From a virus (lineage: Duplodnaviria; Heunggongvirae; Uroviricota; Caudoviricetes): a stretch of DNA of 34,387 bases. Position numbers and translations under genes: made by a program. Shown here piece by piece: positions 3,238 through 32,929 of the stretch (positions within the stretch are counted from its first letter, which is position 1; the number at the start of each line of letters is the position of its first letter). The DNA lies in the IMG/VR virus record IMGVR_UViG_3300045988_107065. The stretch is one strand, 5' to 3'. Below the pieces are notes generated by a model. It did not search any database. It saw only the letters and a list, made by a program, of their open reading frames with translations, and was not told the origin of the DNA.

Positions 3238-3249
3238 TGACATGTCACG

Positions 3250-3708
3250 CTACTTGCGAAATCTTTCTTTACCCTTCCAGCCAGTAGATGTTAGTTCAGG
3301 ATGAATGGTTCCCAATATAAAGCCAACCATAGCGGAGCGAGGATCTTCTATTTTATCCGTTAATTCTTCGGCATAACTCACAGGCAACCAAGCAACAAGA
3401 TCACCAATCCTCAGCTTTGGTCCTTTGCTGTAAGATGAATCGGCAATAACAAAAAATCCACCATCAGCTGAGCACACCTTCAGCATTGCCCTTTGTCTTC
3501 CAGAATCCAGCAAAACTGGCTGTTCCCCACTGGGACCAGGTATGATGATGGCTGGCATTGGTTTATTGGCTGAAAGGCTTGTGTCAAGATACTTACACGC
3601 ATACTCAAAAGCTGAAAAGTTATCCTTAAAGATAAGAGGTTGAATTTTATTGCTAACCTCCTTACCACCGATTAATCTGTTGATCATCTTCTTGAACATA
3701 AAGGTCAC
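3250..3708 (-). CDS. Hypothetical protein (152 aa)
   Basis: Long ORF in AT-rich island; no recognisable motif. Confidence 0.5.
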   Translation of the reverse strand: MTFMFKKMINRLIGGKEVSNKIQPLIFKDNFSAFEYACKYLDTSLSANKPMPAIIIPGPSGEQPVLLDSGRQRAMLKVCSADGGFFVIADSSYSKGPKLRIGDLVAWLPVSYAEELTDKIEDPRSAMVGFILGTIHPELTSTGWKGKERFRK

Positions 3709-3711
3709 CTA

Positions 3712-4152
3712 ATGATTAAGCCGATGCACGCTATTACAGCTACCGTTTTGTTTATCCTACCAATTTTTTCGTTTGCAAACGACATATGTTTTAAGAATTT
3801 AATAAATGAGGATATGTGTGCACATGCAAACAAAATTGCATCAGAAGCAGGAAAGTCTCTTCCCATAAAATTGAATGATAATATGTCTATTGTTTCAATA
3901 AATGCAATACTAAACAAACTTTTAGTTGTAGCGCATCTTAATTACAACAACAGCTATTTATCAAAAGTTTATAATGGTGATGTAACCTTAGAAAATAAAT
4001 TAAAGAGTGTAATGCGAAATTATTCAAAATCGAGCATTTGCTCCAACAGGCAAATGAAAGCATTTATTCACCTTGGCGGAGAGATTGAGTATAGGTATGT
4101 ATTTAGTGATGGCAATATATTTGATACATACGCCATCACTAATTGTGAATAG
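3712..4152 (+). CDS. Hypothetical secreted/periplasmic protein (146 aa) with signal peptide
   Basis: Hydrophobic N-terminus (AITATVLFILPIFSFA); AT-rich; stop codon abuts the stop of the convergent gene at 4153. Confidence 0.55.
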   Translation: MIKPMHAITATVLFILPIFSFANDICFKNLINEDMCAHANKIASEAGKSLPIKLNDNMSIVSINAILNKLLVVAHLNYNNSYLSKVYNGDVTLENKLKSVMRNYSKSSICSNRQMKAFIHLGGEIEYRYVFSDGNIFDTYAITNCE

Positions 4153-7100
4153 CTATTTCATCTGCTCTTCAACTTTATTTAGTAACGGTGATATCGCCCA
4201 CAGGTTCTGAAAAGGTAGCATTTTACGGACCGCGTGGGTTTGCTGGCTGTCAAATTCTCCGTTAAGTACACCATTCGCAACCGTCGCGGCATCACCGCCA
4301 AGATCAAAGGTAGGACCAAGTAAAGCACCAATAGCATTACGACTCTGAAACCTTGATACCGGAGGCGCACCAAACATCGCGCCAAGACCAAACCTACCGC
4401 CGCTTATGTTCTCAACGGTATTCAGCGGCTCAGAGAGCCAGCCAAGCATTCCGCCCCGGTCGATCCCCTCTTTCACAAGGTTATTCCAGCTGTAGTCGAT
4501 ATCGCGACCGCTTAACTTCTGTTTCATCATATAGACCATTGAGCCAAGCGCAATCGTGCCAAGCGCACCAAGATAGAATGCAGCATCGCCCTGCTGGATA
4601 CCAGATACTAGCACCCTGTTATGCTGTGCGAAGATAAACGTTTTGAACTGCGTGATCATCTTCCAGCCTTCTTTACTAAAAAACAGCGGTGTATCACCTA
4701 CGCCAGGCGTTACAATCACTGAGTCTACATCTTTCAGCACTGCAGACTGGAAAATCTCTCTAGCGAAACGGTCATCCCACAGATGACTATGCCCGGTTAA
4801 CAGCCCGTCCATATCCTCTCCGTGCTTCCCGAATTGCTCCCCGATTCGACGCAGAACATCTTCATTGATGCCGACCTGTGCCATCTTCCGCATTTCACTT
4901 TTGGAGAGCGTGCCACCAGCAGAAACTTGGCGAGCCGCGTCAAGTATCCTCGACTGCACTATCATCCCGGACCATGATTTAAGTGCGCTGTTCCACTGAT
5001 TCATCAGCGTCCAGTTACCGAATTTCTGCGTCATCCAGTTCAGACCTCGCTCAGCGGCGCTTCTCCGGCTATAGGGGTCAGTAAGATCCGCTATAGCCTT
5101 TGTACGCGTAGACAGGACATAATCAAGCCCAACGGCCATTTCTCGCAAATCCCTGGTTGCAATTTTCACTGAGTCCATATTTTTAAGCATGCTTACCATT
5201 GGTCCGAGAGATTTTCTCAGGCCATGCTGCATCATCGGTCGCATCAGATCAGTTGCAGCGGAGACAGTCATTCCACCAAGCAAACGGAGGAAGTTAATAT
5301 TCCTAGCAACTCGCCCGGCACGAACAAAGAAACTGCGTGGATCTTGAGGTGCGCCGTAAGTACCAAGCAGTCGATCACGCATAGCCGTAATATCCCTAAT
5401 ATCAGCCTCCCGTTGCTTCTCAAGAACTGCACGTCGTTTAGGTGTTTTAGCCTCTTTTATTAGCCGGGTATATTCCTCACTAACCTGACGGATTTGCTCC
5501 CCCATATCTTTACGGCCAAACTGCGCAGTCAGCTCAATTTCTGGTGCCACCTGCCGGAGATAACTTTCCATGATGTAGTTAACATCTGATTCAAGAAAAT
5601 CTTCTATACGCTCATCAGGAATAAGCAGCGTTCTGCTTTTAGTGAAACCAGCCCGACCAACGAGTCTCTCTGGGATAATATCGGCTGGTACAAGCCCGGA
5701 AGGTGCGCCTATTATTTTATTCACGATCTCGTCAGCAGCGTCCTCTGCTTCCTCTCGGGATAGAGGCTCCATCTGCTTCAGTGCTCGTTCGCGGCTTGCA
5801 TTCAGCCTTGTGGTTGAATTTGCCCGTTTTTGCAGTCGGCGAAGCTCAGAACGATATTTCCGTGGATTATCCAGCAACTCCATATGGCGCTGATAGACAG
5901 GAAGCTCACTCTTTGCCTGCGCTATATCATCAAGGCGTGTTTTAAGGTCAGAGCTTTCTTTCATCATTCTTGCCTGAAGTTTTTCTGATGAAGTCTCGGC
6001 CAACTCTTTTTCTATTCTTGTAAGACGCGCCTGTGTGTCAGTCTCCTGAGATATAAGCTTATTTCGTTTATCCAGTTCTTCCATGAGTAGAATTTTTTTA
6101 CCAGACCATTTCTCCGCTTCAGCGATTTCACTAGCGAGAGCATCAGCGCGCGGTGCTGATTCCTCTGCAGTTTTTAGCAATGAATTTATCTTTTCAATTC
6201 GCTTACCTGCTTTGTCAGCACCTTTGGCACTAATCCCTTGTATCCAGTTGGCAATTCGCCCTCTGAATTCAGTGCGGTCGGAAAGTATCTTATCGAACTT
6301 ATAAATGCGGGGAAGATAACTTTTCGCCGTCACGACATCGATATCCTCAGGAAGGATCCCCAGTTCCTGCATACGGGCTTTTGTGGTCTCAAAAATGGGG
6401 CGGATTCTGGCGGCTGCTTGTGAAACCTCAGGAATATCACTCTGATCACCACGGCGCATAGCCATGCCAACAGCTTCATTGAAATCAATAAAGCTCATCC
6501 TCTTCACGCCGCGGGCGCTGACAGATTTGCTGTACTGCTGGTAAGCATCACGAGTAGCTTCCATCTGCTTATAAAGCATGGCATCGTATTGCTTAATCTT
6601 AGTCTCGACTGCCGTAAACGTAGCCAACCCCTCATCATTTTTGGCGAAGAAATAGTTATTTTCGGCAAGCTGCTGGTTAATCTGACGGGAAACAAGAGAT
6701 GGTGATTGCGCCAAGCGGCCAGCAGGAGTGACACTCAACGTTTTGTTAGCAAGTCCAAGTCCAGCGAGCTGTTCCTGATCGAGTGTGGTATTGAAAACCT
6801 GAGCTGCACCAATGCTTTGAGGAGAATCCATACCTCGCAAATGATTACCTACTGAGTTAACCACTGCCTCGCGCGCGCTAGGTCCAGCAAGTAGCTGTGC
6901 ACCAGCACCAAGGATCCCACCAACGAGAGCATCAATAACAACGTTCGATACGCTCTCCATCGGTGAGCGAGCTTCCTGAGTGGCCTGTAATGCGGCTTCT
7001 GATACTCCCCCACCAGCAGCATTCGCCAAGGCAAAACGCCCTGCCGTCTCAGCAATACTTCCTCCACGCGCTACCGCCCCTACAGGGATGAACATTGCAG

Positions 7101-7542
7101 CCACATTAACCGGGTCTATCATTCCCATTGCTAAGCTTGAAATAGTACCAGCACCACCCATTTCAGATAGATATTCTCTATCTGTTCTTTGCTTATCGAT
7201 TCGATGTTTAATTGCCATTGTTTCTTCAGGCGAACCGGAGTTGATAAACGAATCTGCAAAATCTTCATAGCCTTTAATATCTGCTGCATCGTTATCAAAT
7301 GGGTTATATCCTTCAACCCTGTCAAACTGACTGAAAGGAGCACTGGCAATAAAACTACCCAGCGTGTTATCTATACGAAATGCTGCTTGTCTAGACCTTT
7401 GAACGCGTTGATCACTGCTAAATGGGTTCACAGCAGAAAGCAAAGAAGGTGTTTCCATATAGAAATTACTGTCATCAGGTGCTGCTATTTGCTGAATATC
7501 CTCGCCAAGCAACTCTTTAGGATCCTGTTCATATATCGGCAT
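4153..7542 (-). CDS. Large internal virion/ejection protein (1129 aa) with long coiled-coil region (T7 gp16-like position)
   Basis: Size, Gly-rich N-terminus, E/K/R-rich coiled-coil segment, position last in the structural operon; start overlaps upstream stop (TAATG). Confidence 0.55.
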   Translation of the reverse strand: MPIYEQDPKELLGEDIQQIAAPDDSNFYMETPSLLSAVNPFSSDQRVQRSRQAAFRIDNTLGSFIASAPFSQFDRVEGYNPFDNDAADIKGYEDFADSFINSGSPEETMAIKHRIDKQRTDREYLSEMGGAGTISSLAMGMIDPVNVAAMFIPVGAVARGGSIAETAGRFALANAAGGGVSEAALQATQEARSPMESVSNVVIDALVGGILGAGAQLLAGPSAREAVVNSVGNHLRGMDSPQSIGAAQVFNTTLDQEQLAGLGLANKTLSVTPAGRLAQSPSLVSRQINQQLAENNYFFAKNDEGLATFTAVETKIKQYDAMLYKQMEATRDAYQQYSKSVSARGVKRMSFIDFNEAVGMAMRRGDQSDIPEVSQAAARIRPIFETTKARMQELGILPEDIDVVTAKSYLPRIYKFDKILSDRTEFRGRIANWIQGISAKGADKAGKRIEKINSLLKTAEESAPRADALASEIAEAEKWSGKKILLMEELDKRNKLISQETDTQARLTRIEKELAETSSEKLQARMMKESSDLKTRLDDIAQAKSELPVYQRHMELLDNPRKYRSELRRLQKRANSTTRLNASRERALKQMEPLSREEAEDAADEIVNKIIGAPSGLVPADIIPERLVGRAGFTKSRTLLIPDERIEDFLESDVNYIMESYLRQVAPEIELTAQFGRKDMGEQIRQVSEEYTRLIKEAKTPKRRAVLEKQREADIRDITAMRDRLLGTYGAPQDPRSFFVRAGRVARNINFLRLLGGMTVSAATDLMRPMMQHGLRKSLGPMVSMLKNMDSVKIATRDLREMAVGLDYVLSTRTKAIADLTDPYSRRSAAERGLNWMTQKFGNWTLMNQWNSALKSWSGMIVQSRILDAARQVSAGGTLSKSEMRKMAQVGINEDVLRRIGEQFGKHGEDMDGLLTGHSHLWDDRFAREIFQSAVLKDVDSVIVTPGVGDTPLFFSKEGWKMITQFKTFIFAQHNRVLVSGIQQGDAAFYLGALGTIALGSMVYMMKQKLSGRDIDYSWNNLVKEGIDRGGMLGWLSEPLNTVENISGGRFGLGAMFGAPPVSRFQSRNAIGALLGPTFDLGGDAATVANGVLNGEFDSQQTHAVRKMLPFQNLWAISPLLNKVEEQMK

Positions 7543-10289
7543 TATTTGCCCCCTGCGTATATATTGCTCGGAAGGTTATTGGCTGAACCATAACCGAATG
7601 GCTTGGTCAGATCTGGAGGAGTATATCCATCTTTATTGCTGAACTGCGGCAGCGGATTGCCTTCTCTCCGCACTCTAGCTTCATCAACACGCTGTTGCTG
7701 GAACTGAATGGTTTGCCTGTACATTGGAGATGTCAGCTGATCCGGCTTGAAACGAACAGGGAGACCATTTTCTCCAATATAATTTCTAGGTTCTATCGCT
7801 CCGTTTGCGTCAGGCTGTAAAACCATAACAGCATAACTCCTATCCCTTGCCGTAAGGCCATCAGAAACAAGTATTAAGTCCGTATCACTGCGAGGACCGC
7901 CAAAGGATTTTGATTTAAGCTCGCGTTTTTCCTGCTCCCACTGCCCCTGTATCCAGTTACCAGCACCATTATTTACTCCGTACAATGCCTCAGGTGCATA
8001 CTTCATAACCTCTGCTTTGCCATTAACCGTAGAAACTCCCCAGGTGGTTCTGATCATGGCATTGGTCATTTTCTCAGCCTGTTCTGCATCGCCGCCTGTC
8101 TGTACAAAGTTAGCATCGTAAATTGTCTGGTAATCTCGCTGATAGGCCGCATTTGATTTTCCTGGATCGGTAATATCCGGAGACCACGAACCAAAGGAAG
8201 TCAGACTGCTGGCGTTATTTTGTGCAGCAGTTGCCCTCGCCGCGACATATTTTTTGTCTCGCATGGCAGTAGAAAGCATCTGTTTCATTCGGTCATCCTG
8301 TTGGAACACCTGGCTGTAAGCCATATCAACAGCCTTATCCTCCGGCACGCCAGCGCGGGAATAATCGTAAACCTTGCCGTAAAATGCCATCGTACTTTTA
8401 TCAAGTGTTGCCGCTGCCGCCGGATTATTATCGAATAACTGACCGTAGAATTTTGCCATCGGGACAACCAGCGCAGGATCTCTTGATGTTGCTCCACTGT
8501 TAAGCATTGTTTTAACCTGAGTTGGTATCATGCCGCTTTTAGTTGTGACGGTGACCAGTGTATTGATGCTCTGCGGATCAGATATGGAAAACGAAGGCGC
8601 GATATCCTGCGCGAAATAACGGTCTACCGCTGCCTGATTGTTTTTGTCGTTCGGGTCCAGCGGGAAGTTATTTTGCATTGAAGACACGAATCTGTTTCTT
8701 CCCTGCTGAATCTCCCACTCCCTATCCATCTCTTTAAATTTGGCCTGCATTTTCTCCCAGCGTTGCTGGTTAGCTGCAAATCCAGGAGCGTTTGGATCCT
8801 GTGGACGTAAACGTTCAAGAATGTCTTGTCGTCCTTCTGGAGTGAGGTCTTTAGCGGCACCAATGACACCTCCATATTGTATCTGCGCCTGCATATCCTT
8901 CCACTTCATAGCGCCAATGCGCGGACCATTGGCCCGGATAAAATCGTCCTCAGAAGGTAACTTCTCAGGTTTCAATCCTTCATCAAGGGCTGAATATGCA
9001 TCTTTAACTACAGTGCTAAGCTGGTCCGCATACTGCTGGCGGAACTGATTTCTCAGCTCATTAGCCTGCCTCAATGCCTGTATTTGCATTTGAGGGCTCA
9101 TAGCATCAAATGCCGCATTGCCCGTATAACGCTTAGGTGAATCAAGGTTAGTTAGACCAAGGGCTGCCGAGATACCAGTTTCAAGCTGTTCGGTGCTATA
9201 AGGCATACTGCCATTTTCGTGTTTAATAATCCCAGCACATAAAGCAGCTAGTGTCTTTGGGTTAGAGATATCAAGCTGATCATTCTCCCCAACACCAAGC
9301 TCACCACACAATGCCCTAATATAAGCATCAGTATTATTACCATCACTAGCCGGAGCATAGCGATTAACAATCTCGCTAACGGTGTCATAGCCTTGACGCT
9401 GGTAAGACAACATATTTTTACCCAACGCGCGGATTCCATGCTCAGGAGTAGCAAACGTTGCAAAACGCCCATCGCTACCGATCTGACCTTCCCACGGGTT
9501 AGATTTGCTCGCTTCAATATTACCAGGGTTATTATTACGTAAACCACGAGCATCCAATGAATTACCATGTGATATTGCACGACTCACACCATCAAGATCC
9601 CCTGGCTCTCCATTAACCTGAAGAAACTCGTTGTATTTTTGAGCGATATTTCCTATCCATGCTTGCTGCCCCATTTGTTCCTTGAGCTGAGTTTTCTGCT
9701 GAACACGCCACTCATCAGGAAGCCCATGCGCATCAGCGTATTGATCAATAGATTCAAATCGCTGCTTGGCTAAATCGACAAATGCTCGGTTATCGCTATA
9801 TAGCCCCGCAGACTGAGTGACAGCCAATGCATTTCCTGACAAATACGTTTGATCTTGGAATTGCTGAAACTGCCCAACTTCATATCGACGTGCCTGATTG
9901 TAATAAGACTGCATAGACTGCTGGAGTTGAAAGGATAATTTATTCCTTTCCTCACTTTCAGGAATTGAGCCTAATAATGCCTGAGCCCTTTCCTGCATAT
10001 TTTTCATAACAGCGTCACTCAGACCAAGAGCGTTTTTACCCTGTTTAGAAATCAGCCCATTTTCAGGGTTGTTAATCTGGTCATCTGCAAATTGGTTAAA
10101 TTGCAGTAACGCCTCCTGTGCCATAGCAACATTCGCTTTCTGCCTGGCTTCACCATATGCCACCGCATACTGATCTGCGACATTCGCCAGCACCTGACCT
10201 GCCTGAGGAACATCGAAGGTCTGAAAACCACCGGTTTGCACACCACGACTTTGCACCTGGCGTCCGGATGTAGTAGGAACAACAGGCAT
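7542..10289 (-). CDS. Large internal virion protein (915 aa; T7 gp15-like position)
   Basis: Size and position; contains a conserved-looking segment NNPGNIEASKSNPWEGQIG...FATFATPEHGIRALGKN whose function I cannot assign with certainty. Confidence 0.5.
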   Translation of the reverse strand: MPVVPTTSGRQVQSRGVQTGGFQTFDVPQAGQVLANVADQYAVAYGEARQKANVAMAQEALLQFNQFADDQINNPENGLISKQGKNALGLSDAVMKNMQERAQALLGSIPESEERNKLSFQLQQSMQSYYNQARRYEVGQFQQFQDQTYLSGNALAVTQSAGLYSDNRAFVDLAKQRFESIDQYADAHGLPDEWRVQQKTQLKEQMGQQAWIGNIAQKYNEFLQVNGEPGDLDGVSRAISHGNSLDARGLRNNNPGNIEASKSNPWEGQIGSDGRFATFATPEHGIRALGKNMLSYQRQGYDTVSEIVNRYAPASDGNNTDAYIRALCGELGVGENDQLDISNPKTLAALCAGIIKHENGSMPYSTEQLETGISAALGLTNLDSPKRYTGNAAFDAMSPQMQIQALRQANELRNQFRQQYADQLSTVVKDAYSALDEGLKPEKLPSEDDFIRANGPRIGAMKWKDMQAQIQYGGVIGAAKDLTPEGRQDILERLRPQDPNAPGFAANQQRWEKMQAKFKEMDREWEIQQGRNRFVSSMQNNFPLDPNDKNNQAAVDRYFAQDIAPSFSISDPQSINTLVTVTTKSGMIPTQVKTMLNSGATSRDPALVVPMAKFYGQLFDNNPAAAATLDKSTMAFYGKVYDYSRAGVPEDKAVDMAYSQVFQQDDRMKQMLSTAMRDKKYVAARATAAQNNASSLTSFGSWSPDITDPGKSNAAYQRDYQTIYDANFVQTGGDAEQAEKMTNAMIRTTWGVSTVNGKAEVMKYAPEALYGVNNGAGNWIQGQWEQEKRELKSKSFGGPRSDTDLILVSDGLTARDRSYAVMVLQPDANGAIEPRNYIGENGLPVRFKPDQLTSPMYRQTIQFQQQRVDEARVRREGNPLPQFSNKDGYTPPDLTKPFGYGSANNLPSNIYAGGK

Positions 10290-10864
10290 CAGTAACCTCC
10301 TATTTTGAATCGGGAGTCAGAATTCATAAAACCTGAGTTAGATAGCATTGGCGTCCCACCACCAGATGTACTTCCTTTAGAGAACGGACTCCACGTCCCA
10401 CCAAACATCTGGTACGCACCGTATGCCTTCAGAGGCGCGGTGAGCAATGTTGTTGCTGCTCCCACATTCCCCTGTTTACGGGCTGAACTGGCTTCTGCTT
10501 TATAGTTGGCAGCCTGAACCTGATAACCGTAAGCCTCGCGTTGCGCGTTATTCACCGTCGTCAGCGAATCAAGAGCGCCAAACTGGGCTGTGTCGCCAAA
10601 TATATCCAGCGCGTTACCTGTAGATAAATCAGCGCCGGTAGCCCCCATTGTCGCCGCCTGTGTACCAAGCCGCTGTCGGGTCTCTCTGCGCCGTTGCTCA
10701 GCTTCAGCGTTACCTCTGTTTATTGCATCATTTGCCTGAGCTGTGGCTATATCTGCGTTCGCTTCTGCAACCTTCGAGGCATACTTTCCCTGTTGGTACT
10801 GGGTGTATGCCTGAATGCCACTCATGGCGAGCATTGCACCACCAGCAATAACCGGATCGCACAT
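10289..10864 (-). CDS. Internal virion protein (191 aa; T7 gp14-like position), Ala/Gly/Gln-rich
   Basis: Position and composition. Confidence 0.4.
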   Translation of the reverse strand: MCDPVIAGGAMLAMSGIQAYTQYQQGKYASKVAEANADIATAQANDAINRGNAEAEQRRRETRQRLGTQAATMGATGADLSTGNALDIFGDTAQFGALDSLTTVNNAQREAYGYQVQAANYKAEASSARKQGNVGAATTLLTAPLKAYGAYQMFGGTWSPFSKGSTSGGGTPMLSNSGFMNSDSRFKIGGY

Positions 10865-11328
10865 TATTTTCTCTCCATGTGAAATCTGTGGAAATTAAGA
10901 CCAAGAGCACCATAAGGCGCGGCTTCTTCAAGCCTGAATCCAAGCCAGTGCAGCCATGCTTTGGCAACATGGTTTCGCTCGTCGACGTAGTTTTCCAGGC
11001 GCGGATAAACTGCCAGCATCTGCTGCAATACAGGGCGGCAGTGGCGCAGAAATGTCTTCTGATATTTTTCAATACGGCTGGTTCCTACCAGCCAGGGCGT
11101 ACCATTGCCACCGATCATTGACGCCGGAGATACGCCAAACATGGTTACCAGTTCTCCGTTCGCAAATCCTGACCAGGCCATAGTCGCAGTGCGAAGACCA
11201 ACACGCAGCGCATCTTCGGTAGTCATCAGCGATACCGCATACAGTTCGTCAATATCAGCCTGACGAACATCCGGCAAAATCATCTGAAGATGCTCTTCGG
11301 TGGCGGGAATAATTTGAACATCGATCAT
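10864..11328 (-). CDS. Hypothetical virion-associated protein (154 aa)
   Basis: Position within the structural operon, translationally coupled to neighbours. Confidence 0.35.
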   Translation of the reverse strand: MIDVQIIPATEEHLQMILPDVRQADIDELYAVSLMTTEDALRVGLRTATMAWSGFANGELVTMFGVSPASMIGGNGTPWLVGTSRIEKYQKTFLRHCRPVLQQMLAVYPRLENYVDERNHVAKAWLHWLGFRLEEAAPYGALGLNFHRFHMERK

Positions 11329-13781
11329 CAGAATCCCCCAACAGTAAGACGAGGAATAACGGCAAGAACAGACAGCGGCAACGGGTCAAGCTGACGGATT
11401 CTTACACGTCCGTTTTTGCCCCAGTTACTGTCCAGTTTCACTTCTACTTTTCCGGTAGCGTCATCAACAGGATCATCGTAGAACTCGAATTCACGCTGTG
11501 GATATTCGTACCATTTACCGCCGGGCGTAGTCGCCCAGATGCCGCGACTGGCATTCACAACCAGAGTAACTGACGGGATCACCTGTTTTTTGTCCAGCAG
11601 CGTTTCCTGTCCGTTAATGTTGATATCCAGTGTTTCGAATTCAGCAGTTATTGGCAGGCCGATGTGCACAACAGCCCCCGGTGATTCCAGCGTGACGGCA
11701 CCTCCGGAAACCACTTTTTGTGGTTCCACGTTCGCATCAGAGAGGATGTTTACGGTCTGGCCTTCAAGATGAGACAAGCCGCCAAATGTCCGGCGCGCCA
11801 TCTGCCAGTTTGTGGTAGCCACATTCCTGAGGGATGGCGGGACGTTCCTGTTAGCACGAACCACTACTGCGGTATTGCTGGTTACAGAAATAATGTCGCA
11901 ACGTAATTCTTTTGACACTTCATCGCCGGTATAAGGGAACTGTAGTTGCGCACCGACATCACTACTGGTGAAGTACGCACCACCAGAAACACTGATTGTA
12001 TATTCCGCGCGGTAATCCCATTCACCAGAACCACCAGTGATGGTCATCGTTCTGTCAGACGTATTTCTTCCATCATAGCTAAGGCCAGAATCAACAAAGA
12101 AAGCATCTTCATCGCTGGTAAATAAACGGCTGGACAGTCGCTCGATGTATCTCACTGTTTGCCCGTTAACGGTTCGGTTAACGACGAAATACACCGCATC
12201 TTCATTGCCTTCGCTGATACTGCATGTGCTTTCATATTTTCCGGTACTGGACTGTGGTGCCCATGCAAAAACCTGTTGATCACGCAGATAGGTCATCACC
12301 AGTAATTTACCGTCATCACGAATGCAGAAGGCGCTGGAGTAAGGGACAATAGAGAAGCACCAGTCAACAATGCTGTGCTTCTGAAAAAGATGATTGGCAA
12401 GGATGGTCAGGTCGTTCCCCTGATAGCCGTCAACATCGAATGAGTAGGCCAGATCACGGACAACACTGCCTTTCTCCTGGACGAACAGAGCAATATTCGC
12501 CACGGCAATTGGTGGGACATTGCTCGAGCCATTTGATCCCTGAGAGCTGAATGCAAATGATGATGGGGTTAACACTTTGTTCTGGTCGCCGGTGATGACG
12601 TACTCACCTCCGGAAGTCAGTGCCACCAGCGAACCGACATCAATCAGGTGGCGGATCTCATTAACCTGACGCCCGGCATAGGTGTAGATAATTCTGTCGT
12701 CATCCTGCGTAGGATTGCTTTTGCCAAAATCCTTATAATCCCCGGTACGGCTGGCCCAGATAGTCTGAGGGAACGCAGTCGATGCGGCGAAGTAAAGGCG
12801 TTGTTGATAATAAACAACAGTGCCAGGATAACCGTTAATACTGTTCCAGGCATATTTAGCCCATTTATAGCTGGCATTATCCTCGCCAACTACCTGCGAA
12901 GGGATATAGGAAATCACCTCGGCAGTTGCAGTAGTTCCATTTGCAGCAGAGATACGGGCAATGCCAAAACCACTGTGCAGATACTCCCACTCAATGCCGG
13001 TATCATCATCACCGGATCCGCCCCAGCCATCCCATGATGTGCCTTCTGTATGCGAAGGGCGCAAAGTGCCTGTTTTGCCTGCTGTAACGGCGCGATAGTA
13101 GTTACTGTCTGCACGGCGAATATCGCCAATCGACGTACTCTTACTGGTTTCCCATACCGGCACAGAATCCACTGCAGGCTGTTCCAGATAGAACAATTTG
13201 CCTACCTGCTCCGCGCCAAAAATAGAGGCGCTTGCCGTTAACGTAATTGTCCCGGTGCTGGCGCTGGCATAAACCGTCACTGACTCGTCAATATTGATAT
13301 CTTCAAATGGCCCGTTCTTCGTTACCACATCAACCAGTTGCCAGTTGTCATGCGCATAGCGGCGCAACTCTTTCGGCGGGTATGCCGGATGAACCAGCGT
13401 AAGCACGTCTGCGCTTTGCGTGAATTTAATTCGGAACAGATCGGCTTCAGTATATGGCGTGGCAATTTCATAAATAACATTGCTGCTGTTCAGCACCAAC
13501 GCACCATCTTTGATAACGCGCATGTACTGGTGTCCGAACTCCAGAGCATAAGTCTGAACCGTCGAGAACTGGAACGGGATCAGGCGGCATTTCCGATTTG
13601 GGTATTTGGCGGCACCGACAAAACGCGTACCAGGTCGATTCTCAACGCCGCCATACTGCCGCACGATAAAGTTATCGCACTTGCGCAATGCCACCTGGTA
13701 CTTCGCCATGTCGATACGACCGTACAACGATGGTCCAATCTCACCACCGGCAAAGCTGGGCTGGATCCAACTGATAGCCAT
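11328..13781 (-). CDS. Tail tubular protein B-like (nozzle; 817 aa)
   Basis: Size (T7 gp12 is 794 aa) and position after the gp11-like gene; beta-rich composition. Confidence 0.55.
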   Translation of the reverse strand: MAISWIQPSFAGGEIGPSLYGRIDMAKYQVALRKCDNFIVRQYGGVENRPGTRFVGAAKYPNRKCRLIPFQFSTVQTYALEFGHQYMRVIKDGALVLNSSNVIYEIATPYTEADLFRIKFTQSADVLTLVHPAYPPKELRRYAHDNWQLVDVVTKNGPFEDINIDESVTVYASASTGTITLTASASIFGAEQVGKLFYLEQPAVDSVPVWETSKSTSIGDIRRADSNYYRAVTAGKTGTLRPSHTEGTSWDGWGGSGDDDTGIEWEYLHSGFGIARISAANGTTATAEVISYIPSQVVGEDNASYKWAKYAWNSINGYPGTVVYYQQRLYFAASTAFPQTIWASRTGDYKDFGKSNPTQDDDRIIYTYAGRQVNEIRHLIDVGSLVALTSGGEYVITGDQNKVLTPSSFAFSSQGSNGSSNVPPIAVANIALFVQEKGSVVRDLAYSFDVDGYQGNDLTILANHLFQKHSIVDWCFSIVPYSSAFCIRDDGKLLVMTYLRDQQVFAWAPQSSTGKYESTCSISEGNEDAVYFVVNRTVNGQTVRYIERLSSRLFTSDEDAFFVDSGLSYDGRNTSDRTMTITGGSGEWDYRAEYTISVSGGAYFTSSDVGAQLQFPYTGDEVSKELRCDIISVTSNTAVVVRANRNVPPSLRNVATTNWQMARRTFGGLSHLEGQTVNILSDANVEPQKVVSGGAVTLESPGAVVHIGLPITAEFETLDININGQETLLDKKQVIPSVTLVVNASRGIWATTPGGKWYEYPQREFEFYDDPVDDATGKVEVKLDSNWGKNGRVRIRQLDPLPLSVLAVIPRLTVGGF

Positions 13782-14386
13782 CAGGACAACCTCGCAATAG
13801 TAAACTCGTCAACCGGTGGCTGTGGTTCCTGTGATTCATTCTGGCTATGCGAGCCAGCACTAAGAATCACGCGATTGTACATATTGAGGGCAAACGTACC
13901 GAGGTCTGCATTCCCAGTCAGCGCCATGTTAATAGCTGCCGCAAGACGCCAGGCCAACGCCTCCATAAAAATGGCATCAAACATGTTCACATCTGAAACG
14001 CGAGAGACATACTTGAGCCATGCCTGCGGCTGGTCTGTGTAGATCAACTTTCCTGTTCCGTTGGTGTCTGCACCAACTTCGTACTGAACGCGCATTGCTG
14101 CTGTTGGATTGCGTACACCAGGAAGCATAATTTCAGTAATGCGCAGACAATCGGACGGGTACTGGTACGCATATTCCCAGTCAGGCGGTGGATTGCTCGT
14201 ATCTGCAAGCGCCACGCGTTTGGTAGCAAAGTTCCAGTCAAAATCAGAAAGAACAGCATCACGGCAGGCCTCAAAGTGCAGCGAACATTCACCCGCTTCC
14301 TTGCTGGCTTCCGTCAGGCTGTTAATACTGCGGCTGTTGCCAATATTGGACAGCGCACGATTACAGATCTCTACTACAGAGGCCAT
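13781..14386 (-). CDS. Tail tubular protein A-like (adaptor/gatekeeper; about 201 aa)
   Basis: Size (T7 gp11 is 196 aa) and weak N-terminal resemblance; ATG at 14386 preceded by GGAGG. Confidence 0.5.
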   Translation of the reverse strand: MASVVEICNRALSNIGNSRSINSLTEASKEAGECSLHFEACRDAVLSDFDWNFATKRVALADTSNPPPDWEYAYQYPSDCLRITEIMLPGVRNPTAAMRVQYEVGADTNGTGKLIYTDQPQAWLKYVSRVSDVNMFDAIFMEALAWRLAAAINMALTGNADLGTFALNMYNRVILSAGSHSQNESQEPQPPVDEFTIARLS

Positions 14387-14709
14387 CACTCACCTCCGTT
14401 ACCGTACAGAGTTTCAGCCGCTGATTTTTCTACATCCCTGGAAACAGGAGCGATCGCCATATCAGTGATCTGCAGATCGGCGCTGCGATTAACACCATCG
14501 TCAGTTTCTCTGGCAGACAGGCCTCGAATAACAGCCTTTGCAGTTATCATCACTTCTGTTCCGACGCCCTGAGGTTGCGCCTTCAGCTTATTCAATGTGT
14601 CGTTATTAAGAGTGATGCACAGCCCCCACGGGTATTCATCGCGAGTTCTGGTTTCTCCGCTCTCATCCTGGTAGCTGTCAGTGCCGGTTTTGAGGTTTAC
14701 GAGTTCCAT
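14386..14709 (-). CDS. Hypothetical structural protein (about 107 aa)
   Basis: ATG at 14709 with AGGAG 5 nt upstream. Confidence 0.4.
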   Translation of the reverse strand: MELVNLKTGTDSYQDESGETRTRDEYPWGLCITLNNDTLNKLKAQPQGVGTEVMITAKAVIRGLSARETDDGVNRSADLQITDMAIAPVSRDVEKSAAETLYGNGGE

Positions 14710-14733
14710 ATACACTCCTGCAATAAAGGGGCC

Positions 14734-14751
14734 GAAGCCCCTTGTCTGATC
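14734..14751 (-). terminator. Intergenic hairpin (possible attenuating terminator)
   Basis: aaggggc-cgaa-gcccctt. Confidence 0.35.
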
Positions 14752-14759
14752 CGCGAGGC

Positions 14760-15095
14760 TTACACGCCCAGTTCTTTACGCTTATCTGCGATCTTCTCGC
14801 GGAGCGTTTCAGCTTTGGCGTTATGGTGTGGCTTCTCGTTAAAGAGCAATTCGTACTCTTCACGGAGCTTATCCAGTTCACCATCATCTGACACATCGTT
14901 GATGATTTTGGTGCTGGTTGCTGCCATTGACACCTTTACTGCAACTTTTGCTTTTGCCTGTCTGGCTGCATCGTTAACAGGTTCCAGTGCGCTACCAGGC
15001 TCACCTTCGTATTCGATTTCTGCCCCCTCCGGCCACAGTGTGTTATGGATATGAGAGAGGCGCAGAACGCGGTATCTTGGTTTCTCACCTGACAT
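14760..15095 (-). CDS. Hypothetical structural protein (about 111 aa)
   Basis: ATG at 15095 with AAGGTGA 5 nt upstream. Confidence 0.4.
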   Translation of the reverse strand: MSGEKPRYRVLRLSHIHNTLWPEGAEIEYEGEPGSALEPVNDAARQAKAKVAVKVSMAATSTKIINDVSDDGELDKLREEYELLFNEKPHHNAKAETLREKIADKRKELGV

Positions 15096-15105
15096 CGATA
15101 TCACC

Positions 15106-15543
15106 TTAACCAGTTACTTTTGAGCGGATCGGGTACGGCGTATTGGCATCAACATCCAGACTGATACCCGCAGTGAATTTGCCGGCCGTTAGTGGGCCAG
15201 TTGCGACGGAGTAGTTAACACGCAGATATCGCTGAACACCGGCTGGCACCTTTGCAGAAACAACTCGCTTACCTGCTGTCAGGGTGGCCTTTGCCAACGC
15301 ACCACTATCATAAATAGTGGTCCAAGAGCTGTTATTCTCACTCGTCTGCAACTGGATGTTTACAGTTGCCTCACCACTTGCCGTGGCGGCTTCGTTAACC
15401 AGCCCCCAAAACTCAAGCGGGTAACCCACACCGATATCGCGACGGTTTCCATCAATTGGACCGAGATCGATTACGTCAGTAGAAGCCGCGGTATCAGTTA
15501 CCGCCTGTGCTTCGGAGAACATCAACAGTTTGTCGGTGATCAT
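15106..15543 (-). CDS. Hypothetical head protein (145 aa), possible decoration/cement protein
   Basis: Position immediately downstream of the major capsid gene; beta-rich sequence. Confidence 0.35.
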   Translation of the reverse strand: MITDKLLMFSEAQAVTDTAASTDVIDLGPIDGNRRDIGVGYPLEFWGLVNEAATASGEATVNIQLQTSENNSSWTTIYDSGALAKATLTAGKRVVSAKVPAGVQRYLRVNYSVATGPLTAGKFTAGISLDVDANTPYPIRSKVTG

Positions 15544-15562
15544 CTTCTTTCTCCATTAGTGG

Positions 15563-15582
15563 GTCTGTTACGACCCACAGGT
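15563..15582 (-). other. Stem-loop downstream of the major capsid gene
   Basis: gtgggtc-tgttac-gacccac. Confidence 0.35.
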
Positions 15583-15594
15583 TAATAACAGGCG

Positions 15595-16587
15595 TTACAC
15601 CACGCGGGCTTCTGTTTCCAGAAGCGCATCAGTTTCACGGATTGGTACACCACGGAATGACGTCCACCACTCGCCTTCAGTCTCTTTTACGCTAATCGCC
15701 AGAGATGTTTTCTCCAGAGACTGCAGATCAAGAGCCTGGCCTACAGTGCGGTTCATGTAGAACACCGGGCGACCCATGCCACGGTTTGGAATGCGATGCA
15801 GTGCTTTAACCATCAACTTCGCAATATTTGCGGCAGAGGAAGGTTCTGAAAGATTGCTGACATCGATGTTTGCAATGCGAACAACATAACGCCAGTCACG
15901 CAGAGCAAGTCCGTTATCCCATTTGTAATGGGTGCGATAGCCTTCGTACTTGCCGCCATTAGCATCTTCCAGTGTCACCTGGCCTTTATCTTCCATCTTG
16001 ATGCCAGCCTTCTGCCCTTTCGGGAAGATGCCATGCACGGTGTTTTCGCCCCACACTACTAACCAGATTGAGGTGTTATCTGTACCCGTGCCACCAGCAT
16101 CAATGATGTTCTGAGCATTACCCGCAGACAGGCTGGAATAGCGGGAGGACAGTCCCATAAACTGCTGAGGGTTAACGCTGGAATCACCATAAAACAGTGT
16201 CTGCGCCATCTGCTGATTCATCGCTTCAATAAATGCGCGGTCTTCAGACAGGCGGAATTCGGCGGTATTACCGTTCAGATCAGCCAGTGACTTATCGACT
16301 TCAGCATAGGTTTCCAGCATTCCAACGGAATCGGTGACCTGCACTGTGGTTGATTTGCTTGGCTGTACGCCATAGTTCAGCAAACGCCAGGTGGCTGAAG
16401 GTAAACCAGAACGAATGGTGGTTCGGTGTCCGGTAGGAAGGTTCCCTTCGACAAAAGGCATATCCTGAAGGATCGGGTTAGTTTGACCGAGAAGCTCGAT
16501 AATCTTATCGACTTTCCCGTTTGGATCGACGCGCTTACCCCAGTCAGCCAGCGTTAGCGCAGTTAAGCCTTTAACAGCCATTGTCAT
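15595..16587 (-). CDS. Major capsid protein (330 aa)
   Basis: Position after the scaffold gene and size; no sequence-level family assignment possible by eye. Confidence 0.6.
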   Translation of the reverse strand: MTMAVKGLTALTLADWGKRVDPNGKVDKIIELLGQTNPILQDMPFVEGNLPTGHRTTIRSGLPSATWRLLNYGVQPSKSTTVQVTDSVGMLETYAEVDKSLADLNGNTAEFRLSEDRAFIEAMNQQMAQTLFYGDSSVNPQQFMGLSSRYSSLSAGNAQNIIDAGGTGTDNTSIWLVVWGENTVHGIFPKGQKAGIKMEDKGQVTLEDANGGKYEGYRTHYKWDNGLALRDWRYVVRIANIDVSNLSEPSSAANIAKLMVKALHRIPNRGMGRPVFYMNRTVGQALDLQSLEKTSLAISVKETEGEWWTSFRGVPIRETDALLETEARVV

Positions 16588-16595
16588 TTCCTCTC

Positions 16596-17291
16596 TTATT
16601 TGCCATAGAGCACTTCGGCCGCACTACGCTGGCCTTCATTACCACCGGTGACCATGCCATCTTCAGACATCGCCTTTCCGATTTTCACGAACGTTTTGAC
16701 CAGATCAGGGTGATTACCCAGTCCGGTGGTGTTCAGATATTCTTTGAGTTCAGGTGTCCCGAACTGGTCAAGCGCACGCTGTGCGGCGCTAAGGTTAGAA
16801 ATCAACTTGTCGCCACCGATTTCTTTGTCAGCTTTTACATCCGCAGCCCACTGCTCGGTTGTTTTCTGCCAGGCTTCTGCCTGGCGCTGCTGAACACCTG
16901 CCAGAATCTTCGGATAAGCATCAACCAGCTTTTGCGCTTGCTCGTTGGTCAGGTTTAGTTCTCGCGCCACCGGCTCGAATTCCTTCAACGCTTCTGTATC
17001 CAGCTCTACGCCTTCGGCAGCCTGAAACTCGTACTTCTCAGGCGCACCCTCTGGTTTATCGCCGCCCTTTTTTTCATCCTGCTTATCGTTTTCAGGCTTT
17101 TTGTCATCAGCAGGTTTATCGCCATCAGCAACAGGTTGTGGCTTATCACCTTCCGGTTGTGATGGATCACCAACTGGAGCAGGGTTATCACCTGCAGGCG
17201 CTGACGGTTCTGACGCAGCCGGAGCTGCTCCACCATCGACTGGTTGCTCATTGCAAAGACGGCGATACAGCAAACGCTCAAATAAATTCAT
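16596..17291 (-). CDS. Scaffolding protein (acidic, Pro/Asp/Lys-rich, helical C-terminus)
   Basis: Composition and position between portal and capsid; ATG at 17291 with AGGAG 5 nt upstream. Confidence 0.55.
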   Translation of the reverse strand: MNLFERLLYRRLCNEQPVDGGAAPAASEPSAPAGDNPAPVGDPSQPEGDKPQPVADGDKPADDKKPENDKQDEKKGGDKPEGAPEKYEFQAAEGVELDTEALKEFEPVARELNLTNEQAQKLVDAYPKILAGVQQRQAEAWQKTTEQWAADVKADKEIGGDKLISNLSAAQRALDQFGTPELKEYLNTTGLGNHPDLVKTFVKIGKAMSEDGMVTGGNEGQRSAAEVLYGK

Positions 17292-17293
17292 GA

Positions 17294-17590
17294 TCACTCC
17301 TGTTCACTGGCCTCTTTGGCCATCTTCAAATACTGTTCAGGGCAATGCGCCATAACGCGCTGAAACAGTTCCAGCGCCAGATTGCGTTGCCCCTCATTAA
17401 ATGCCATTGCCATAGAGTCCATCGGTGAGATAGCGGAAAACACACGGCCTTTCTCCAGCACCGACCAGACAACGCGACGCCCCTGTTCACTGCTCATGAC
17501 AAAGCGAATGTCATCAATTTCACGCTGTGCCATGTCACATTGCTTACGGGCGTTTTCTTCTTTCAGTTGATCATCTTCGTAATCTGTCAT
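17294..17590 (-). CDS. Hypothetical protein (98 aa) between portal and scaffold
   Basis: ORF translationally coupled to portal. Confidence 0.4.
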   Translation of the reverse strand: MTDYEDDQLKEENARKQCDMAQREIDDIRFVMSSEQGRRVVWSVLEKGRVFSAISPMDSMAMAFNEGQRNLALELFQRVMAHCPEQYLKMAKEASEQE

Positions 17591-19266
17591 TGTGATTGCC
17601 CACCCTGACCACTAACTGCATTCGCCATAGCTGACAAAACACTCGGCTCCGAAGTTTTAGCTTCGCTTAGCGTCTTGGCACCCTGTGCCGCCGCCATCCC
17701 CATCGCCATCATTTGTTGCTGCTGTTGTTGCTGTGCCCGTTGCTGGCGAGCCTGCTCAACCTGTTCCTGCGGAACAATGACGGTTGGAGACACTCCGGAC
17801 ATATCAGCGAATGCATCGATCGCCTGATCAACGTTGAGTTTGTCGAGAGCTTCTGGTTTCGCTTGCGCAAGTTGACCAATGAAGTTAACCGTGGACGCCA
17901 GACTGGACAGGCCGATAGACTTCTGCGCCTGAGCCATGACGGAAATGTATTCGACCTTCAGGGGCATACCTTCCATCGCGTCAGGCGGTGGCGGCAGCAT
18001 GTTTTTACGCACCATCATCGAGAAAGCGCGGTCAATGAGAGGGTTAAGACATTCGTCGTTCAGACGCTCCAGAACCGGCCCCAACATCAGAAGCTTTTCT
18101 TCTTTCATTTCGATCACTGCTTCAACAGGCATCGAGCGGGTATTGATGTTCTGCAACATCATGAACAGATCGACAAAGTAGGCGCTGTTAATGATTTGGC
18201 GGGTGTCCTGAATGTCTGCTACCAGATCTGCTGTACTGGGGTTAACCAGATAAGCAGGCCTGAAACCATCCTGACCAGTAATCTGATCGATATACGTGAT
18301 GTCGCCAGGAAGAAGAGAGGCGCGCTGATTCTTGAGGGAAGTCGGAGCAACCATCGGCGGATTGGTGGCTTTATCAATCAACTGCGACTTGCGCTTCTGG
18401 AGAAGCTGCAATGCCTTAACAGGTCCAAGCGCCAGCATACCCGGGCATGATGATCCATAAACATCTTCGCCGTTAACTTCCCAGCGCGGAGCCATAATTG
18501 GAAACTCATCGAATCCGGACTCACGCAACAACTTGTCGTTATCGCCGCCAACCTCGTAATAAACCGATTTGAATGGCTTGTTCTTGCTATCCAGCTTCGA
18601 TGTATCGCGGTCAATGTTCGGGTAAACCGAATGCATAACTTCAATCCACTTCTCGTAGGTTCCGCTTTCCCACATGCTTTTTACGGATTCGCTGACGTTA
18701 TTTAGCCCGAACTCCTGAACAAGCTGACGAACAGTCATAGAGAACTTGCGAAAACAGGTGTCCACACTGCCACGAGGTGAGTTAGCCAGGTAGTAACTGC
18801 CTATCGGGAATGGCATTGTGCGAATGATGTCCTCGTCATCCTCCAGCACTGCCATTGCACCAGTGCTGTATGTGCCGAGGCTTCCGTATAACTGCGGCAG
18901 CGACTGATAGAGATTCGACTTATTGAACATATCGTTCATGCGGTTCTGCACCGCCTCAAGCCACAACTTAACAGGGCCATAATCCATCATTTCAGGATCT
19001 GGCGTAGCCAGGCGAAACCACGGACGCGCGGGGCTTGTGATGCCTGACATCATGCCGCTGGCGAGAGTGCGCGCCGCCATAGTCCCGGTCGAATCAATAA
19101 TGCGTGTATTGCGTCGATCGTTACGGTTGACCTCAGAAGTCAGAAAGCGGGAACCACGCGGGTTGATGTAATCACTCAACTCGCGCCAGTGCGGCTCGAA
19201 CGACTGACGCTCGCTTTCAAGTTGTGCGAACTGTTTGTTCAATCGCTCTTTAGTTGTTTCCGCCAT
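17587..19266 (-). CDS. Portal (head-to-tail connector) protein, podovirus type
   Basis: 559 aa; N-terminus and Gln/Ala/Met-rich C-terminal tail resemble T7 gp8-family connectors; downstream of terminase. Confidence 0.75.
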   Translation of the reverse strand: MAETTKERLNKQFAQLESERQSFEPHWRELSDYINPRGSRFLTSEVNRNDRRNTRIIDSTGTMAARTLASGMMSGITSPARPWFRLATPDPEMMDYGPVKLWLEAVQNRMNDMFNKSNLYQSLPQLYGSLGTYSTGAMAVLEDDEDIIRTMPFPIGSYYLANSPRGSVDTCFRKFSMTVRQLVQEFGLNNVSESVKSMWESGTYEKWIEVMHSVYPNIDRDTSKLDSKNKPFKSVYYEVGGDNDKLLRESGFDEFPIMAPRWEVNGEDVYGSSCPGMLALGPVKALQLLQKRKSQLIDKATNPPMVAPTSLKNQRASLLPGDITYIDQITGQDGFRPAYLVNPSTADLVADIQDTRQIINSAYFVDLFMMLQNINTRSMPVEAVIEMKEEKLLMLGPVLERLNDECLNPLIDRAFSMMVRKNMLPPPPDAMEGMPLKVEYISVMAQAQKSIGLSSLASTVNFIGQLAQAKPEALDKLNVDQAIDAFADMSGVSPTVIVPQEQVEQARQQRAQQQQQQQMMAMGMAAAQGAKTLSEAKTSEPSVLSAMANAVSGQGGQSQ

Positions 19267-19280
19267 TTCAATGACTCCGG

Positions 19281-19487
19281 TTACTGACCAAGCAGCGTTT
19301 TACCGCTGGTATTAGCGGTTGATGTGTCACCCTGAGAACCGGTAAGCAGCGTAGAACTACGACCAGCAGCAGCGCGACGGCGACGAGTTTCTTCGTCGCG
19401 GGCATCAACAACGGCGGCATCCTGCTCCTGTGGTGCTGCCTGAACTTCTGGTGTTGCAGGCACTGACGGTGAGCTACCCATGCACAT
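19281..19487 (-). CDS. Small hypothetical protein (68 aa), Ala/Arg-rich
   Basis: ATG with GGAG 8 nt upstream, immediately upstream of portal. Confidence 0.35.
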   Translation of the reverse strand: MCMGSSPSVPATPEVQAAPQEQDAAVVDARDEETRRRRAAAGRSSTLLTGSQGDTSTANTSGKTLLGQ

Positions 19488-32735: not shown

Positions 32736-32926
32736 ACAGGGCATCACCATCAGATTTAAGGAAATGCCTTGAAACTGCAAACATGCTTGCACACAGCGGG
32801 ATCAGGTTTGTTCCAATTCCCGCTGTCACTGATGCTGAATTTGCAACACTGTCAGCAATATTCACAGATAAAATTGAATCACTGGCAGCAGAAGCCGAGA
32901 TGGAAGAAAATCAGCAGAATAATTAA
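32732..32926 (+). CDS. Small hypothetical protein (64 aa)
   Basis: ATG overlapping the methyltransferase stop (ATGA) with GGGAG upstream. Confidence 0.45.
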   Translation: MNRASPSDLRKCLETANMLAHSGIRFVPIPAVTDAEFATLSAIFTDKIESLAAEAEMEENQQNN

Positions 32927-32929
32927 ACG

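Follow-up and report, generated by a model that had tools for sequence, protein, structure and literature searches.

The window analysed here is the whole 34,387-nucleotide stretch of IMG/VR record IMGVR_UViG_3300045988_107065, from a tailed virus (Caudoviricetes), and the gene considered is one that encodes a 915-residue protein. An initial annotation of this DNA had described the product as an internal virion protein and had pointed to a compact conserved block, at about residues 240-330, as a candidate peptidoglycan-degrading domain. The open reading frame (ORF) proved correctly placed: an ATG-to-stop frame of 915 codons fills positions 7542-10289. The strand, which the annotation had left unsaid, is the minus strand, the plus-strand reading of the same interval being full of stops. 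An AGGAGG ribosome-binding site lies 6 nucleotides 5′ of the ATG. The start codon and the stop of the upstream gene share one base (TGATG), and a similar one-base overlap (of the TGATG/TAATG type) links its stop codon to the downstream gene's start. No signal or transmembrane segment was found in the protein. Both parts of the segment singled out in the annotation are present within the 240-330 range, NNPGNI at residues 253-258 (9516-9533) and FATFATPEHGIRALGKN at residues 276-292 (9414-9464), so that the segment as a whole spans residues 253-292.

The conserved block and its relation to the Enc34 domain

When 31 full-length homologues are aligned (A2), residues 247-377 reach a mean pairwise identity of 0.64, as opposed to 0.30-0.47 in all other regions. 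The four 40-residue windows of lowest entropy begin at residues 251-281, and the invariant columns fall mostly between residues 252 and 378. Residues 247-377 are the most constrained part of the protein. The annotation was therefore right about the conservation of the block and too narrow about its extent, as the domain reaches approximately residue 377; a 240-330 range leaves out the putative catalytic glutamate, E358, in the HENGS motif. The N-terminal signature of the block, RNNNPGN, stands out in a non-redundant set of 97 family members; this set was picked on NN[PA]GN, which makes the invariance of the motif partly circular there, but RNNNPGN conservation is also seen in alignments A1 and A2, neither of which was chosen by the motif. 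Further invariant positions among the 97 sequences include R248/G249/R251, N252-N257, W266, G268, G285, R287, A288, Y296, A312, P313, N318 and T320. Some homologues are 832 or 1015-1074 residues long and are covered over 54-72% only; the idea that the block had been exchanged for another module in these proteins was rejected, as they keep NNPGN. Since every full-length homologue examined has NNPGN at the equivalent place, with length differences confined to the flanks, the putative lysin appears to be constant throughout this protein family, with no swapping inside it.

Pfam and NCBIfam scans of the 915-residue protein returned no model for the domain, and neither collection could thus supply a name for the family. 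There was no SLT or lysozyme match in Pfam; indeed, at E <= 0.1 no Pfam family (SLT/GH23 included) matched the 915-residue protein, and the product of the downstream gene (1129 residues) matched only DUF919. A phmmer search of PDB sequences gave two clear matches, both limited to residues 247-399 and far beyond chance: 9vvp_L, "Gp29" (residues 3-150 of 1295; E 5e-35), and 7q47_A, the Enc34 ORF39 endolysin's catalytic domain (E 3.6e-15). A profile of the full-length family found the same two entries (9vvp_L, 2.6e-52; 7q47, 1.7e-30 over profile positions 245-376) and nothing else in the PDB, gp15 chains included. An AlphaFold model of residues 236-400, built from 78 sequences, has a mean predicted local distance difference test score (pLDDT) of 87.6. 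When this model was compared with the PDB by Foldseek, only 7q47_B and 7q47_A were significant (E 2.8e-10 and 3.7e-10; template modelling (TM) scores 0.72-0.75), the next match having an E value of 0.49. The limits of the domain were set at about residues 247-377 on this basis. The predicted structure has the all-helical fold, resembling the alpha lobe of lysozymes, that is seen in 7Q47. Literature searches turned up nothing relevant on the NNPGN motif and no paper describing the 9VVP structure.

The Enc34 domain (CDD PHA02564, the "V virion protein" family) has been reported to lyse outer-membrane-permeabilised Escherichia coli, P. aeruginosa and H. alvei (PMC8943055). Its structure is closest to a GH73 glucosaminidase, the structural relation to GH23 and GH73 being only distant and permuted, and its authors conclude that it is a beta-N-acetylglucosaminidase. 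For a second family member, M4Lys of Salmonella phage BSPM4, muropeptide analysis spoke for a glycosidase and gave a hint of endopeptidase action as well (PMC7143992). In this literature, measured peptidoglycan-degrading activity in the family is limited to Enc34 ORF39ΔC (PMC8943055) and M4LysΔTMD (PMC7143992). Glu131 of Enc34 superimposes on the catalytic glutamate of related enzymes, and Tyr95 and Trp79 correspond to residues that matter for catalysis in them (PMC8943055). In the HMMER alignment, Trp79, Tyr95 and Glu131 pair with Y311, Y323 and E358 of the 915-residue protein (chain indices 80, 96 and 132 in the alignment correspond to the published 79, 95 and 131, a constant offset of +1). 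As aligned, all three catalytically important positions are conserved.

In sequence, predicted fold and active-site positions alike, residues 247-377 show the features of the Enc34/PHA02564 family wherever these could be checked. The suggestion of a peptidoglycan-degrading domain in the block thus gains support from homology to the Enc34 catalytic domain, from the match of its model to a lysozyme-like fold and from the retention of the three positions. We picture the domain as a predicted all-helical glycosidase, resembling the lysozyme alpha lobe and flanked by a helical region on its N-terminal side and a long helical body on its C-terminal side. Judging by Enc34 and M4Lys, the bond cut is probably that of an N-acetylglucosaminidase-like enzyme. 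The features of the gene and of its surroundings are collected in Table 1.

Table 1. Features of the 915-residue protein gene and of other parts of the window
Feature	Position	Strand	Basis or remark
915-residue ORF, putative epsilon15 gp15-type virion/ejection protein with predicted internal muralytic domain	7542..10289	minus	ORF and translation, phrog_1044, identity to epsilon15 gp15
AGGAGG ribosome-binding site of the 915-residue ORF	10296..10301	minus	upstream sequence read
Predicted Enc34/PHA02564-type ("structural protein P5") lysozyme-like muralytic domain, residues ~247-377	9159..9551	minus	PDB sequence matches, profile, fold model, conservation
RNNNPGN signature, residues 251-257	9519..9539	minus	invariant or nearly so across the family
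E358 in HENGS, aligned with putative catalytic Glu131 of Enc34	9216..9218	minus	96/97 family sequences; invariant in 31 full-length homologues
Y323, aligned with Tyr95 of Enc34	9321..9323	minus	97/97 family sequences
Y311, aligned with Trp79 of Enc34	9357..9359	minus	aromatic in 97/97 (67 W, 27 Y, 3 F)
Predicted N-terminal helical region, residues ~43-238, after low-confidence residues 1-42	9576..10163	minus	full-length model, helices 38-226, pLDDT mostly 80-94
Predicted C-terminal helical body and small beta-rich part, residues ~392-876, then low-confidence tail, residues 877-915	7662..9116	minus	full-length model
154-residue gp13-like internal virion protein, same operon	10864..11328	minus	phrog_308, E 9e-63; same position as epsilon15 gp13
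191-residue T7 gp14-family internal virion protein, upstream gene	10289..10864	minus	PF24072, 33.8 bits (cut-off 27); phrog_418, E 1e-72
1129-residue gp16-like internal virion protein, apparently without N-terminal lysin domain, downstream gene	4153..7542	minus	phrog_342
Small ORF in the 3239-4152 segment	3250-3708	minus	phrog_9944; divergent from neighbour
Small ORF in the 3239-4152 segment	3712-4152	plus	phrog_8772; divergent from neighbour
Tail fibre/tailspike gene, N-terminal particle-binding part only, window begins inside it	12-767	minus	
Bro-N/Ant anti-repressor gene	1536-2231	plus	
Integrase-size ORF, opposite end of window	32930-34180	minus	

Gene neighbourhood and protein architecture

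In order of transcription, the minus strand carries a gene of major-capsid size, a 202-residue gene, an 817-residue tail protein gene (phrog_376), and then the genes for the 154-, 191-, 915- and 1129-residue proteins. This is the gene order of phage epsilon15 from gp11 to gp17. The 915-residue gene occupies the gp15 position, between homologues of gp14 (PF24072) and gp16 (phrog_342) in a late structural operon. The internal location in the virion that the annotation had suggested is favoured by these two neighbours, by homology with epsilon15 gp15 and by a weak similarity of fold with T7 gp15 (see below).

The 1129-residue protein aligns with phrog_342, which is labelled "internal virion protein with endolysin domain", over positions 192-1227 of 1235, whereas T7 gp16 covers positions 4-1227. 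The transglycosylase domain of T7 gp16 is made up of residues 1-156 (PMC8954989). T7 mutants in this transglycosylase reportedly take up DNA with a delay or plate less well on cells that are in stationary phase or at low temperature (Moak & Molineux 2000, as cited in PMC8954989). The late start of the match suggests that the 1129-residue protein is devoid of the N-terminal transglycosylase part of T7 gp16; on these profile coordinates, the absence of this part complements the putative lysin carried by the preceding gene. BLASTP showed no homology between the 1129-residue protein and T7 gp16, the two being linked only through the shared PHROG profile, and phmmer searches of PDB sequences with the 1129- and 191-residue proteins gave nothing useful. 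Hydrophobic segments occur in the 1129-residue protein at residues 134-158, 197-220 and 987-1006, and none in the 915-residue protein. The DUF919 match mentioned above (a nucleopolyhedrovirus family) covers residues 530-575 of the 1129-residue protein with an E value of 5.4e-5 and a score of 23.4, the gathering threshold being 21. It lies in a charged, probably coiled-coil stretch and is probably compositional rather than a sign of true homology. This match seems to be the source of the RefSeq label "DUF919 family protein" given to the gene in E. coli genomes.

The full-length AlphaFold model of the 915-residue protein has a pLDDT of 78.7 and a predicted TM score (pTM) of 0.47. A stretch of low confidence, residues 239-263, overlaps the start of the lysin domain. 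Beyond the domain, the model shows a long helical body (residues 392-746), a beta-rich part (residues 750-850), a terminal helix and the tail. The three best Foldseek matches of this model in the PDB are T7 gp15 chains, 7k5c_A (E 1.3e-4), 6yt5_A and 7eyb_A (E up to 2.5e-3), and the PhiM1 ejectosome chain 8vb2_E is also among the matches; TM scores are 0.12-0.18 for the T7 chains and 0.12-0.21 overall. Long helical proteins often give such low-TM fold matches. T7 gp15 belongs to phrog_1339 and not to phrog_1044, the family that the 915-residue protein matches over nearly its whole length (residues 1-903 to positions 1-900 of 900; E = 0) and that bears the label "endolysin" in the lysis category. 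As TM scores are low and hhalign sees no relationship, we take the likeness to gp15 to be one of position, together with a tentative similarity in structure. Among the viral structures of the BFVD library, 84 matches at E <= 1e-3 are podovirus internal virion proteins of 650-1000 residues, many of which carry other muralytic modules (GH108, SLT, GEWL, tail lysozyme, M23, NlpC/P60, LKA1 lysozyme). The picture suggested by these modelled structures is that of a shared scaffold with exchangeable lysin cassettes.

Sequence places the 915-residue protein in the epsilon15 gp15 family. BLASTP aligns it with epsilon15 gp15 (842 residues) at 44% identity over residues 1-519 (2e-135), RGIRNNNPGNL...HENGS included; past this point similarity stops. 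Identity to epsilon15 gp15 and SPC32H gp16 (44-46%) ends sharply near residues 496-519 (around position 8730), and residues 512-832 resemble proteins of Vibrio phages of approximately 31.7 kb, with 30-32% identity. The change of relatives on either side suggests a mosaic junction near residue 520, separating a lysin-bearing N-terminal half and a C-terminal half of different history.

Related phages and known systems

Escherichia phage EC.W1-9, a temperate podophage of 40.6 kb that has an integrase, a repressor and RecT, carries an unannotated gene whose DNA is 99.2% identical to that of the 915-residue gene. The holin-endolysin-endopeptidase (Rz) cassette of this phage maps at 32577-33983, apart from the homologue of the 915-residue gene. 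The window is collinear with the EC.W1-9 genome and ends before the lysis cassette. Having a tail fibre gene at one end and an integrase-size ORF at the other, it looks like most of a prophage without its lysis cassette. On either side of positions 3239-4152, a segment that directly follows the ejection genes, EC.W1-9 is 96-99% identical to the window, but it has nothing that corresponds to the segment itself, which could be an accessory (moron or exclusion) locus.

The gene is found in 172 of 5,426 complete E. coli genomes, always on the chromosome, and in the E. coli records among those listed its RefSeq label is "hypothetical protein", a consequence of neither Pfam nor NCBIfam having a model for the domain. 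Klebsiella, Salmonella, Serratia, Yersinia, Proteus and Providencia commonly carry full-length homologues. A profile search with the domain collected 19,483 representative clusters (50% identity) at E <= 1e-3, and 13,644 at E <= 1e-10; in these relatives the domain stands alone, at either end of the protein or in the middle. It is present in 747-850 phage records, its carriers including chi-like siphophages (where it serves as the endolysin), transposable Pseudomonas phages and small NO16-like Vibrio phages of about 10.6 kb. It also occurs in single-stranded DNA Microviridae ("P5-like structural protein") and in tape-measure-like proteins (phrog_2276). One protein (P0081) joins it to a holin domain of the Pam3 gp28 type, and a single 762-residue protein contains four matched stretches (P0241).

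Comparison with the better known carriers shows where the 915-residue protein departs from them. Enc34 ORF39 and M4Lys have the homologous domain, the RNNNPGN motif and the Glu/Tyr/aromatic signature, but are lysis proteins of about 26 kDa whose C-terminal part is a two-helix membrane domain and whose genes lie in a lysis cassette. In the window, the domain is buried within a structural protein that has no membrane segment, and Tyr takes the place of Trp79. The closest solved sequence relative is Gp29 of 9VVP, an internal virion protein D of gp16 type from Kayfunavirus-like T7 relatives. Proteins of ZCEC02 and of Kayfunavirus isolates share 99.3% identity with Gp29, which makes up four chains of the deposited structure. 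Gp29 has the same type of lysin in a podophage ejection protein; its lysin, however, lies at the extreme N-terminus of the gp16 homologue, whereas the window has it inside the gp15-position protein, next to a gp16-like protein without any. T7 shares the gp13-gp14-gp15-gp16 order after the tail tubular genes and the presence of a murein-cutting module in one ejection protein, but this module is a GH23 SLT lytic transglycosylase on the gp16 N-terminus, gp15 being the protein of the periplasmic tunnel. Precedents for a muralytic module in the gp15-position protein are phiKMV gp36 and SP6 gp36, listed as virion-associated lysozymes (PMC5380687) and assigned to the gp15 position in a review of ejection proteins (PMC8954989, Table 1). 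Their domains are canonical lysozyme-family domains (C-terminal in phiKMV gp36), unlike the Enc34-type domain found here about a quarter of the way along. Hydrolase domain swapping between gp16 and gp15 homologues has been stated as well (PMC8954989). By analogy, the 915-residue protein would work like the virion lysins T7 gp16-N, phiKMV gp36 and SP6 gp36 but from outside their enzyme families.

Phage epsilon15 (Uetakevirus) offers a close parallel, gp15 being in the orthologous position within an identical gene order and having the same domain and catalytic residues. It differs in its C-terminal 400 residues or so, unrelated at the BLAST level, and in being followed by two proteins (gp16, 634 residues; gp17, 918 residues) where the window has the single 1129-residue protein. 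An internal core above the portal and tubular conduit density during infection have been described in epsilon15 (PMC5850374). Table 1 of PMC8954989 lists epsilon15 gp11 (229 residues), gp12 (499 residues) and gp13 (708 residues) as the gp14/15/16-like ejection proteins; in the NC_004775 record (8040-19329) the three are 201, 825 and 154 residues long, and gp11 and gp12 are annotated as tail (tubular) proteins. The epsilon15 row of that table and the accompanying statement of a "small" gp15 and gp16 appear not to fit the record. Judging by synteny and homology, the ejection-protein candidates of epsilon15 are gp14, gp15 and gp16/gp17.

A proposed role in DNA entry and its alternatives

Altogether, the 915-residue protein is very likely the gp15-position virion protein of an epsilon15-/T7-like module in a temperate E. 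coli podophage, with an internal Enc34-type glycosidase domain serving DNA entry. Under this scheme, the protein would be packaged in the virion alongside the gp14-like and gp16-like proteins and, on infection, would be released via the portal and tail. The domain would then cut glycan strands locally so as to let the trans-envelope DNA conduit pass the murein, with Glu358 as the predicted acid catalyst and Tyr323 and Tyr311 positioning the substrate. The lysin would replace the N-terminal transglycosylase of T7 gp16, apparently absent from the 1129-residue protein.

Several points weigh against this scheme. The bond specificity of the family has been argued both as glucosaminidase and as involving an additional endopeptidase activity (PMC8943055 and PMC7143992), and the part that Glu131 plays in Enc34 catalysis seems itself to have been deduced from superposition (PMC8943055). 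At the Trp79 position, the 915-residue protein has the minority state, Tyr (27 of 97). For epsilon15, the tentative assignment of the core is to gp17 and not to gp15 (PMC5850374), and a 2025 paper sums up Guichard et al. 2013 as having put epsilon15 gp15 and gp17/16 into the tail packaging/injection device. Finally, the TM scores of the fold match to T7 gp15 are very low (0.12-0.18), and hhalign detects no sequence homology of the 915-residue protein to T7 gp15 (probability 1.0%).

The epsilon15 data bear on a variant with the same enzymology, in which the protein would be an external tail-hub or tail-tube component, its lysin acting from the tail tip, and not part of an ejected core. Guichard et al. 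are said to have proposed that epsilon15 gp15 and gp17 form a central tube. We regard such a placement as unlikely here: tail building normally falls to tail tubular proteins of the T7 gp11/gp12 type, which the window encodes separately (202 and 817 residues; phrog_376), the 915-residue gene is flanked by genes for gp14-family and gp16-like internal proteins, and T7 gp15 is the top fold match of its product in the PDB. It is very unlikely that the domain is catalytically dead, acting as a peptidoglycan-binding anchor or positioner of the conduit in the murein, or as a structural module. The replacement of Trp79 by Tyr would fit with loss of function, as would the fact that, in the available literature, reported activities come from Enc34 and M4Lys and not from copies in virion proteins. 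However, 97 diverse sequences retain the Tyr and the aromatic position as well as the putative catalytic Glu, within the most constrained region of the protein, and the Tyr found in 27 of them in place of Trp79 is still aromatic.

How the domain cuts is a separate matter. It might be muralytic by a chemistry other than that of a GH73-like N-acetylglucosaminidase, namely as a lytic transglycosylase or a muramidase, the activities given in many GenBank annotations, or with an added endopeptidase activity, the last as suggested by the M4Lys data (PMC7143992). Kayfunavirus homologues are annotated as "peptidoglycan lytic exotransglycosylase", "transglycosylase" or "hydrolase", and the record of epsilon15 gp15 carries a note of an HHpred match to SltB. 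We consider these options rather unlikely, as the annotations were transferred from T7 gp16 by guesswork and not by homology, Pfam shows no SLT match, and the Enc34 structure is nearest to a GH73 glucosaminidase, the activity its authors settled on (PMC8943055). As for the PHROG label, the lysis category of phrog_1044 and the use of the same domain as a genuine endolysin in Enc34- and chi-like phages might suggest that the 915-residue protein is the endolysin that lyses the host. Such an identity is extremely improbable and was rejected on gene context: the protein is not a small enzyme beside a holin or spanin but 915 residues long, without signal or transmembrane segment, and encoded in a structural operon in translational coupling with the gp14-like and gp16-like genes. 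A canonical holin-endolysin-Rz cassette is found elsewhere in EC.W1-9, and a holin-endolysin pair in epsilon15. Because the 99%-identical EC.W1-9 has a lysis cassette of its own, the 915-residue protein is best seen as a virion-associated lysin.

A more daring extension of the DNA-entry role is that the module, being inserted in the body of a tunnel-forming gp15-type protein, would give each subunit of the conduit an active site, exposed on the tunnel wall at murein level, in cis, as opposed to the gp16-N "wings" that act in trans in T7; glycosidase and endopeptidase activities might even share one site, as suggested for M4Lys. This is a doubtful proposition. If true, it would amount to a separate architecture for getting through the murein, in a family of >13,000 clusters without a Pfam or NCBIfam model.

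Otherwise, since both the type of module and the movement of lysins between ejection proteins have been published, the case is an ordinary instance whose value lies chiefly in annotation, and the current view of podophage DNA delivery is unchanged by it. Recognition of the domain corrects the misleading labels "endolysin" and "lytic exotransglycosylase", and reaches beyond E. coli, as the gene is also found in many Klebsiella, Salmonella and Serratia prophages. The domain itself, predicted to be compact (about 130 residues), would make an easily excised muralytic module for enzybiotic work. Annotated as an Enc34-type virion lysin, the 915-residue protein would explain how temperate podophages of the epsilon15-like and related kinds, whose gp16-like protein has no lysin, can breach the murein.

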